Below are positions 24,852 through 25,552 of a stretch of 64,000 bases of DNA, piece after piece; within the stretch, counting starts at the first letter, position 1; every line of letters begins with the position of its first letter. The notes under the pieces were generated by a model. The model saw nothing but the letters and a program-made list of their open reading frames with translations, was not told the origin of the DNA and did no database searches. Both the position numbers and the translations under genes were made by a program. The stretch lies in the NCBI RefSeq assembly GCF_055900595.2, contig NZ_CM148325.1; one strand, given 5' to 3'.

Positions 24852-25552
24852 GTATGCTTAGTGTGTTCCCCGCGCTAGCGGGGATAAACCGGTAATAAAT
24901 TCTTTGTGCGCGAAGAAATGAAGGTGTTCCCCGCGCTAGCGGGGATAAACCACGTGGCAACAATATTCCGCTGCTTTAACGCAAGTGTTCCCCGCGCTAG
25001 CGGGGATAAACCGGCGGCGATCATCTTTGACGCCGACCTGTTTCGGTGTTCCCCGCGCTAGCGGGGATAAACCGCGCTACCACAGGTCGCTACCGCATGG
25101 GCTTCAGTGTTCCCCGCGCTAGCGGGGATAAACCGCGGTCATATTGCGCCTGCACAGACTCACTGCGGTGTTCCCCGCGCTAGCGGGGATAAACCGGGGC
25201 AGGGAAATCACGGGCACGGTGACGATATGTGTTCCCCGCGCTAGCGGGGATAAACCGCCAAAACCATGACGTTCTCACTATCGGATGTGGTGTTCCCCGC
25301 GCTAGCGGGGATAAACCGTGGCCACCGGCAAAGAAAAAACGGAGTTCTGGCGTGTTCCCCGCGCCAGCGGGGATAAACCGGAAACTGTACTTGATGCGCT
25401 GAAAGCGATGGGGTGTTCCCCGCGCCAGCGGGGATAAACCGATGGCCCAGGGATTTGTTCAGTCCAGCGTGCCGTGTTCCCCGCGCCAGCGGGGATAAAC
25501 CGCTCTCGGTTCTGGGGTACTGTTACCCATAACTGAGCTCCCCCGCGTCAGC
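24852..25552 (+). CRISPR. Type I-E CRISPR array: 11 full repeats plus one degenerate terminal repeat, 11 spacers
   Basis: 29-nt repeat GTGTTCCCCGCGC[T/C]AGCGGGGATAAACCG at 61-bp period, starting 24852, 24913, 24974, 25035, 25096, 25157, 25218, 25279, 25341, 25402, 25463; degenerate repeat gagctcccccgcgtcagcggggaactc from about 25524. Spacers are 32 nt (one is 33). Confidence 0.95.

Follow-up and report, generated by a model that had tools for sequence, protein, structure and literature searches.

A slipped spacer and an overlong spacer in a natural non-K12 type I-E CRISPR array of Escherichia coli

Could the boundaries of a spacer in a natural CRISPR array lie one base away from their regular places? 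In the type I-E array of Escherichia coli described here, one repeat ends in A where the other ten end in G, and one spacer has 33 nt where the others have 32. Based on the protospacers found for both spacers, we give a probability of about 0.88 to the combined explanation that spacer 2 (S2) was acquired with a +1 slip and spacer 8 (S8) from a 34-bp prespacer, in an array of the cas-EO variant. The array lies in a window of 64,000 nucleotides, that is, the whole stretch of DNA that was analysed (contig NZ_CM148325.1 of the NCBI RefSeq assembly GCF_055900595.2; one strand, 5' to 3'), and all coordinates below refer to this window unless another sequence is named.

The base at the junction between repeat and spacer has a particular standing in this system. 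Work of 2012 by Swarts, by Datsenko and by Goren reportedly showed that the last repeat base of the E. coli type I-E system comes from the PAM-proximal end of the prespacer, while only 28 bp of the repeat are duplicated. The definition of a 33-nt protospacer implies that the last repeat base is imported together with the prespacer (PMC3737337).

Structure of the array

An exact parse of the window gave 11 repeats, all of exactly 29 nt, at 24863-25502, with the repeat sequence GTGTTCCCCGCGC[T/C]AGCGGGGATAAACCN. No such repeat match occurred in 100 shuffles of the window. Even with as many as 3 mismatches allowed, no further repeat matches turned up, which rules out a second array in the window. 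The elements of the array needed below are the following.

24863-25563, plus strand: CRISPR array of 11 repeats, 11 spacers and a degenerate terminal repeat, the newest spacer adjoining the leader
24892-24923: spacer 1 (S1)
24924-24952, plus strand: repeat 2, whose 29th base (24952) is A and not G, as in eight other genomes
24953-24984, plus strand: spacer 2 (S2), 32 nt, +1 slipped, from the DUF2586 tail-module gene of a P2-like prophage
25014-25045: spacer 3 (S3)
25197-25228, plus strand: spacer 6 (S6), which targets the baseplate J gene of the P2-like prophage family, PAM ATG
25319-25351, plus strand: spacer 8 (S8), 33 nt, the other spacers having 32, from virB8 of a 31-kb conjugative plasmid
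25442-25473: spacer 10 (S10)
25503-25534: spacer 11 (S11)
about 25535-25563, plus strand: degenerate terminal repeat, directly after spacer 11

The base that follows GGGGATAAACC is G in 10 units and A in one (position 24952), so that the junction reads ...AAACCG ten times and ...AAACCA once. The spacing from one repeat start to the next is 61 throughout, except for 62 between repeats 8 and 9, that is, across S8. The original prediction had rightly noticed both the A before S2, against G in the other 10 units, and the length of S8. Its positions, however, need correction, since 24941 is the start of the GGGGATAAACC motif and the interval 25308-25340 given for S8 is 11 nt too low.

The 29-nt repeat, with its 7-bp GC stem and tetraloop, together with the 32-nt spacers, has the form that defines a type I-E array. 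The predicted fold of the repeat has an energy of -15.2 kcal/mol, and its stem is changed neither by T or C in the loop nor by the terminal A. Position 14, in the tetraloop (24876 in repeat 1), is T in repeats 1-8 (GCTA) and C in repeats 9-11 (GCCA; 25352-25502), and the T is present in every repeat added after spacer 9. The loop T is a mutation of the repeat that was then leader-proximal, and it has spread by duplication. In contrast to this polymorphism, which was passed to all later repeats, the terminal A of repeat 2 was not handed to repeat 1, just as one would predict for a 29th base that enters together with the spacer rather than by duplication of the repeat.

The cas operon and the system variant

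A complete type I-E operon (16247-24766) adjoins the array, and all eight of its genes are intact ORFs that score above the cutoffs of the NCBIfam I-E models. The genes, the leader and the flanking gene are as follows.

16247-18904, plus strand: cas3, 885 aa, NCBIfam Cas3 core and HD domains above cutoff, K-12-specific Cas3 model below cutoff
18996-20564, plus strand: cse1/casA (cas8e), the PAM-reading large subunit, TIGR02547, E = 8e-181
20561-21097, plus strand: cse2/casB, TIGR02548
21112-22167, plus strand: cas7/casC, TIGR01869
22178-22924, plus strand: cas5/casD, TIGR01868
22906-23556, plus strand: cas6e/casE, TIGR01907 match from residue 47 of the ORF 22768-23556
23553-24476, plus strand: cas1e, integrase responsible for PAM register and spacer length, TIGR03638
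24473-24766, plus strand: cas2e, TIGR01873
24767-24862, plus strand: leader, AT-rich, 96 nt, of the 'leader-A' type, ending ...gcttagt, with a boundary that fits the A-C-T leader start (PMC3737337)
25584-26621, minus strand: iap, the flanking gene, from its ORF and the annotation of homologous loci, marking the iap-side (CRISPR2.1) array of E. coli

The start of cas6e was taken from the 651-nt RefSeq gene of sister genomes. Downstream of the array, iap on the minus strand is followed by cysD. A megablast comparison with 5,426 complete E. coli genomes identified the locus as belonging to this species. As for Cas3, the K-12-specific NCBIfam model for Cse1 stays below its cutoff. Cas1 is 98.4% identical to that of O55:H7 and 82% identical to that of K-12, and the corresponding values for Cas2 are 97.9% and 86%. 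The boundary between leader and repeat reads ...gcttagt + GTGTT here versus ...tttaga + GAGTT in K-12.

In the cas-EO/leader-A/CRISPR-A variant, the repeat begins with GTGTT (its reverse complement ends in AACAC), and the leader abuts it as A-C-T in the orientation of that paper (PMC3737337). The locus is therefore an iap-side type I-E array of this non-K12 variant, as the GTGTT repeat, the leader-A and the O55:H7-like Cas1 and Cas2 agree in placing it. The PAM of the cas-EO variant was shown in silico and in acquisition assays to be CWT, read as AWG on the strand of the spacer (Diez-Villasenor et al., 2013, PMC3737337). CAT (that is, ATG) predominates among its natural protospacers, whereas K-12 uses CTT (that is, AAG) (PMC3737337). 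Consequently, the PAM to which the spacers of this array should be referred is AWG, mainly ATG, and not AAG alone.

Protospacers and PAMs

The spacers were all joined into one query and compared with phage, plasmid and E. coli genome collections, after which the matches were re-examined locally with their flanks. The E. coli set consisted of 5,426 complete genomes (28 Gb), and one further donor came from IMG/VR. Protospacers were found for six spacers (a slash marks the protospacer boundary).

S1: 32/32, SSU5-like phage-plasmids (Cyrano/pLF82), DUF4942/methylase gene, PAM ATG
S2: 32/32, E = 2e-6, P2-like prophage of E. coli N1420, DUF2586 tail-module gene, flank ...gatATGA/CGTGG...
S3: 32/32, IMG/VR viral contig IMGVR_UViG_2713896897_000016, head protease and major head protein module, PAM ATG (a start codon)
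S6: 28-29/32, baseplate J gene of the P2-like prophage family, PAM ATG
S8: 33/33, E = 6e-7, virB8 of the 31-kb conjugative plasmid pGF47-C and of three sister plasmids, flanks ...agATG/TGGCC...TGGC/acgt
S11: 28/32, same SSU5-like phage-plasmid as S1, PAM AAG

The PAM is ATG in four of the six, AAG in one and ATG displaced by one base in one, in agreement with AWG and with a predominance of ATG. In all protospacers except that of S2 (5/6), G at -1 of the donor goes together with G at the array junction. The donors of S2 and S8 surfaced only in the set of complete E. coli genomes, as a prophage and as recently deposited plasmids, while INPHARED (phage) and PLSDB (plasmid) returned nothing usable for these two spacers at E <= 10. 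No protospacer was found in the phage, plasmid or E. coli collections for S4, S5, S7, S9, S10 and an extra spacer of sister strains. The window contains no self-targeting match, and neither do the array-bearing genomes, in each of which S2/S8 match only once.

It was also observed that the newest and the oldest spacers (S1 and S11) target one family, the SSU5-like phage-plasmids (pLF82/Cyrano), which are very common in E. coli, Klebsiella and Salmonella; 682 PLSDB records were matched.

In addition, S10 overlaps a spacer of O55:H7 (locus sequence 1806-1837) and of about 310 O157:H7 genomes, with a shift of 3 nt and one base different, and the three bases with which it begins (ATG) serve as PAM to the O157-type spacer. 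This points to related invaders having been sampled twice, independently, at overlapping protospacers. The conserved core of S10 has no exact match in IMG/VR. Similarly, the newest spacer of a cas-EK (K-12-type) array in E. coli NT1N28 (locus sequence 894-925) overlaps S3, lying 8 nt further upstream. One phage site, at the start of a gene in IMGVR_UViG_2713896897_000016, has thus been sampled by two different I-E variants.

Spacer 2 and its displaced register

The donor of S2 reads ...ATGA/CGTGG... where the array reads ...AAACCA/CGTGG.... The base at -1 of the donor is A, the same as the junction base, and it is directly preceded by ATG, which thus stands exactly one base upstream of its expected place. 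The last base of S2, also A, agrees with the donor (...CGCAA/tggc), and the spacer keeps 32 nt, so the PAM-distal boundary is shifted as well. Together, these observations mean that the whole 33-nt frame (the junction base plus 32 nt) is displaced by +1, with the PAM 1 nt upstream, the junction base taken from the donor and the 33-bp unit kept. The chance of finding A at -1 together with AWG at -4 to -2 is about 0.25 x 2/64, or about 0.008. S2 represents a +1 slip of the textbook kind; a point mutation of the array does not account for it.

The crRNA of S2 has the 5' handle AUAAACCA and faces TGA as the PAM of its target, and, going by published I-E biochemistry, it is probably poor at direct interference. 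Slipped spacers have been argued in general to be able to prime (PMC6568314), and by that general argument the S2 crRNA may be able to do so. The triplet 'TGA' does not occur in the running text of Xue 2015 or of Musharova 2019, papers in which the PAM groups are listed in figures.

Spacer 8 and its additional base

At the PAM end, S8 is in the canonical register, with PAM ATG and G at the junction. Its 33rd base (C) agrees with the donor, whereas the donor base after it (a) is not the G with which the repeat starts, which places the extra nucleotide at the spacer's PAM-distal end. S8 is accordingly a 34-bp prespacer with a canonical PAM, a G junction and a 33rd base from the donor, its PAM-distal end being one base long.

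These donors support the original prediction in that both features reflect slipped or imprecise acquisition. Its derivation of the two spacers from a non-AAG PAM fares unevenly. For S2, the A at the junction does come from the donor, but AAG alone is not the proper standard for a system that reads AWG, and an ATG stands one base upstream. For S8, the idea has to be given up, because the PAM is ATG and only the PAM-distal end is irregular.

Priming, mutation or artefact

Did the imprecise spacers arise by priming? The original prediction associated both features with priming. In such primed adaptation, a partly mismatched older spacer would have guided Cascade-Cas3 to the invader, and the degradation products would have supplied the imprecise spacers. 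Some support can be read from the positions of the protospacers. The older S6, with its ATG PAM, shares with S2 both the P2-like prophage family that is targeted and the strand. Upstream of the S6 protospacer, at a distance of 5.9 kb and on the non-target strand, lies that of S2, an arrangement that I-E priming prefers. S11 and S1 also show a compatible arrangement: on phage Cyrano (OV696614.1), the S11 site is at 78748-78779 (+) and the S1 site at 83610-83641 (-), so that the two are 4.9 kb apart on opposite strands of one phage-plasmid, with S1 downstream. Nevertheless, a compatible geometry arises by chance in about half of spacer pairs, and both slips and 34-bp prespacers arise in naive adaptation too. 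Moreover, S1 comes from a phage-plasmid and S3 from another phage, so the three newest spacers represent three different elements, and the neighbours of S2 do not form a burst from one invader. A second spacer against the S8 plasmid was searched for in the array, and none was found. Since E. coli commonly carries P2-like prophages and SSU5-like plasmids, repeated independent encounters are plausible. The type I-E system of wild E. coli is usually regarded as silent. On balance, we consider priming unlikely, though not far-fetched, as the source of these spacers. It is quite unlikely that the array is a natural record of priming in a fuller sense, in which S6, older and by now mismatched, primed S2, S11 primed S1, and a slip by one base from ATG (giving TGA and a handle ending in A) would constitute a priming-only memory specific to the ATG-preferring cas-EO variant.

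Mutation after acquisition was considered as well. Here, both spacers would have been acquired canonically, after which the end of repeat 2 changed from G to A and S8 gained an A in its AAAAAA run by replication slippage. A homopolymer of six A is a plausible site for an indel, and arrays do gather repeat mutations, as the C/T difference in the loop here and the variant repeats in K-12 and O55:H7 illustrate. The donors, however, speak against it. An A and not a G occupies the junction position in the donor of S2, one base downstream of ATG, and the ATGA flank recurs in two diverged prophage variants, 40EC and Z1323PEC0010, making three prophage variants in all. A mutation from G to A would recreate the donor base in about 1 in 4 cases, given a TGA-flanked donor, and acquisition from a site without a PAM would still be needed. 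Inspection of the flanks thus did not reveal a canonical PAM combined with a point mutation of the array, and the A at -1 of the donor largely rules out the latter. As for S8, all 33 nt agree with the donor, the six-A run and the final C (the 33rd base) among them, which rules out an indel in the poly-A run. Finally, none of the sister genomes has a G junction or a 32-nt S8. Mutation after acquisition is therefore very improbable.

These sister genomes are eight other independently assembled E. coli genomes, among the 5,426 complete ones, which carry the same array and originate from Mali, Gambia, Kenya, South Korea and elsewhere. The A junction and the 33-nt S8 are identical in all eight, so that both features are old and vertically inherited and are not sequencing errors. 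Single-base differences in repetitive arrays are a classic site of assembly error, but an explanation of the two features by sequencing or assembly error, or by chance similarity mistaken for protospacers, has a negligible probability: the eight concordant genomes rule out the former, and the full-length, exact matches of S2 and S8 (E = 6e-7 to 2e-6 in 28 Gb), all of them in mobile elements, rule out the latter.

None of the eight genomes has exactly the 11-spacer version of the window. Their arrays differ from it by whole spacer-repeat units that are internally lost or present, and the leader-proximal spacer is the same in all. Some sister strains are without S3 or without S4-S6, and others have an extra spacer, CGCTGATCTCAGGGATTAGATGTCCTGCCTGC, between S6 and S7. 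Recombination is shrinking the array, which is not actively taking up spacers and has not grown since the strains diverged.

Frequency in natural arrays

For comparison, 60 distinct spacers were collected from six natural E. coli arrays (this lineage, O55:H7, EC42405, STEC308, E7476 and K-12). The junction base is G in 56, A in 3 and C in 1 (about 7% non-G), and the length is 32 nt in 54, 33 nt in 5 and 31 nt in 1 (about 10% other than 32). For example, CRISPR I of K-12 contains two 33-nt spacers, and in EC42405 an A junction goes together with a spacer of 31 nt, a combination that forms the other published slip class. The A junction and the 33-nt spacer are consequently not statistically unusual for such arrays. 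As a separate observation, unrelated to slips, one spacer-repeat unit stands next to an exact copy of itself in STEC308 (locus sequence 1806-1898) and likewise in E7476 (1563-1655).

Proposed course of acquisition

The most probable course of events, which we return to here, may be outlined as follows. In I-E systems, Cas1-Cas2 captures a fragment of 33 bp that starts with the final PAM base (the G in AAG or ATG), and this base becomes the 29th base of the repeat. In the case of S2, ATG would have been recognised in a P2-like phage while both boundaries were set one base further in, so that the A of the donor was imported and the effective PAM became TGA. In the case of S8, a fragment of a conjugative plasmid would have been taken in the correct register (ATG, junction G), and trimming or integration would have left its PAM-distal end one base long, so that the unit came to 34 bp. 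Both spacers would then be low-frequency processing errors of the normal acquisition machinery that were fixed long ago and inherited vertically.

Errors of both kinds have been described in K-12. Slips by +1 are the commonest non-canonical class, with 37% of non-AAG prespacers, while 34-bp prespacers make up about 1.1% of usage, 80-87% of which combine a canonical PAM with a surplus PAM-distal base (bioRxiv 10.1101/2020.02.10.942821). Imprecise exonuclease trimming of DNA bound by Cas1-Cas2 has been suggested as a possible cause (bioRxiv 10.1101/2020.02.10.942821), and 'slippage' of spacers in type I-E adaptation has been reported (PMC4027179). By analogy with the published biochemistry of the K-12 (cas-EK) system, Cas1-Cas2 or exonuclease trimming may be the cause of both errors here. 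It should be noted that, for S2 and S8 alike, only a single donor family turned up, and that the true historical donor could differ at the flank.

Significance

The locus is a clean natural illustration that the 29th repeat base is imported with the spacer, that the register can slip by +1, and that the ruler is sometimes off by one nucleotide on the PAM-distal side. It also independently confirms the preference of the non-K12 E. coli variant for ATG. For annotation, non-G junctions and 33-nt spacers in type I-E arrays of Enterobacteria should not be flagged as anomalies, as they amount to about 7-10% of natural spacers in our small sample. The phenomenon and the array are already known in kind and matter little beyond such housekeeping.

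Comparison with known systems

The closest relatives of this locus are the CRISPR2.1 cas-EO arrays of O157:H7 and O55:H7, with which it shares the position (cas2-leader-array-iap-cysD), the GTGTT repeat, the leader end ...agt and the PAM AWG with ATG dominant; Cas1 and Cas2 agree with their O55:H7 counterparts at 98% identity. Its oldest spacers in part recur in, or overlap with, those of the O157/O55 and EC42405 arrays. What sets it apart is its spacer content, which is specific to a small lineage (8 of 5,426 complete genomes), and the C-to-T change in the loop of repeats 1-8.

Among published prespacers, S8 belongs to the same class as the 34-bp prespacers of Stringer et al. (2020), with no difference of substance. 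S2 resembles the slipped spacers described by Shmakov et al. (2014, PMC4027179) and Stringer et al. (2020, bioRxiv 10.1101/2020.02.10.942821) in being displaced by +1, keeping the 33-bp length and taking its junction base from the donor. However, the published slips are relative to AAG (giving AGN) and come from laboratory assays in K-12, whereas the slip of S2 is relative to ATG (giving TGA) and is found in a natural cas-EO array.
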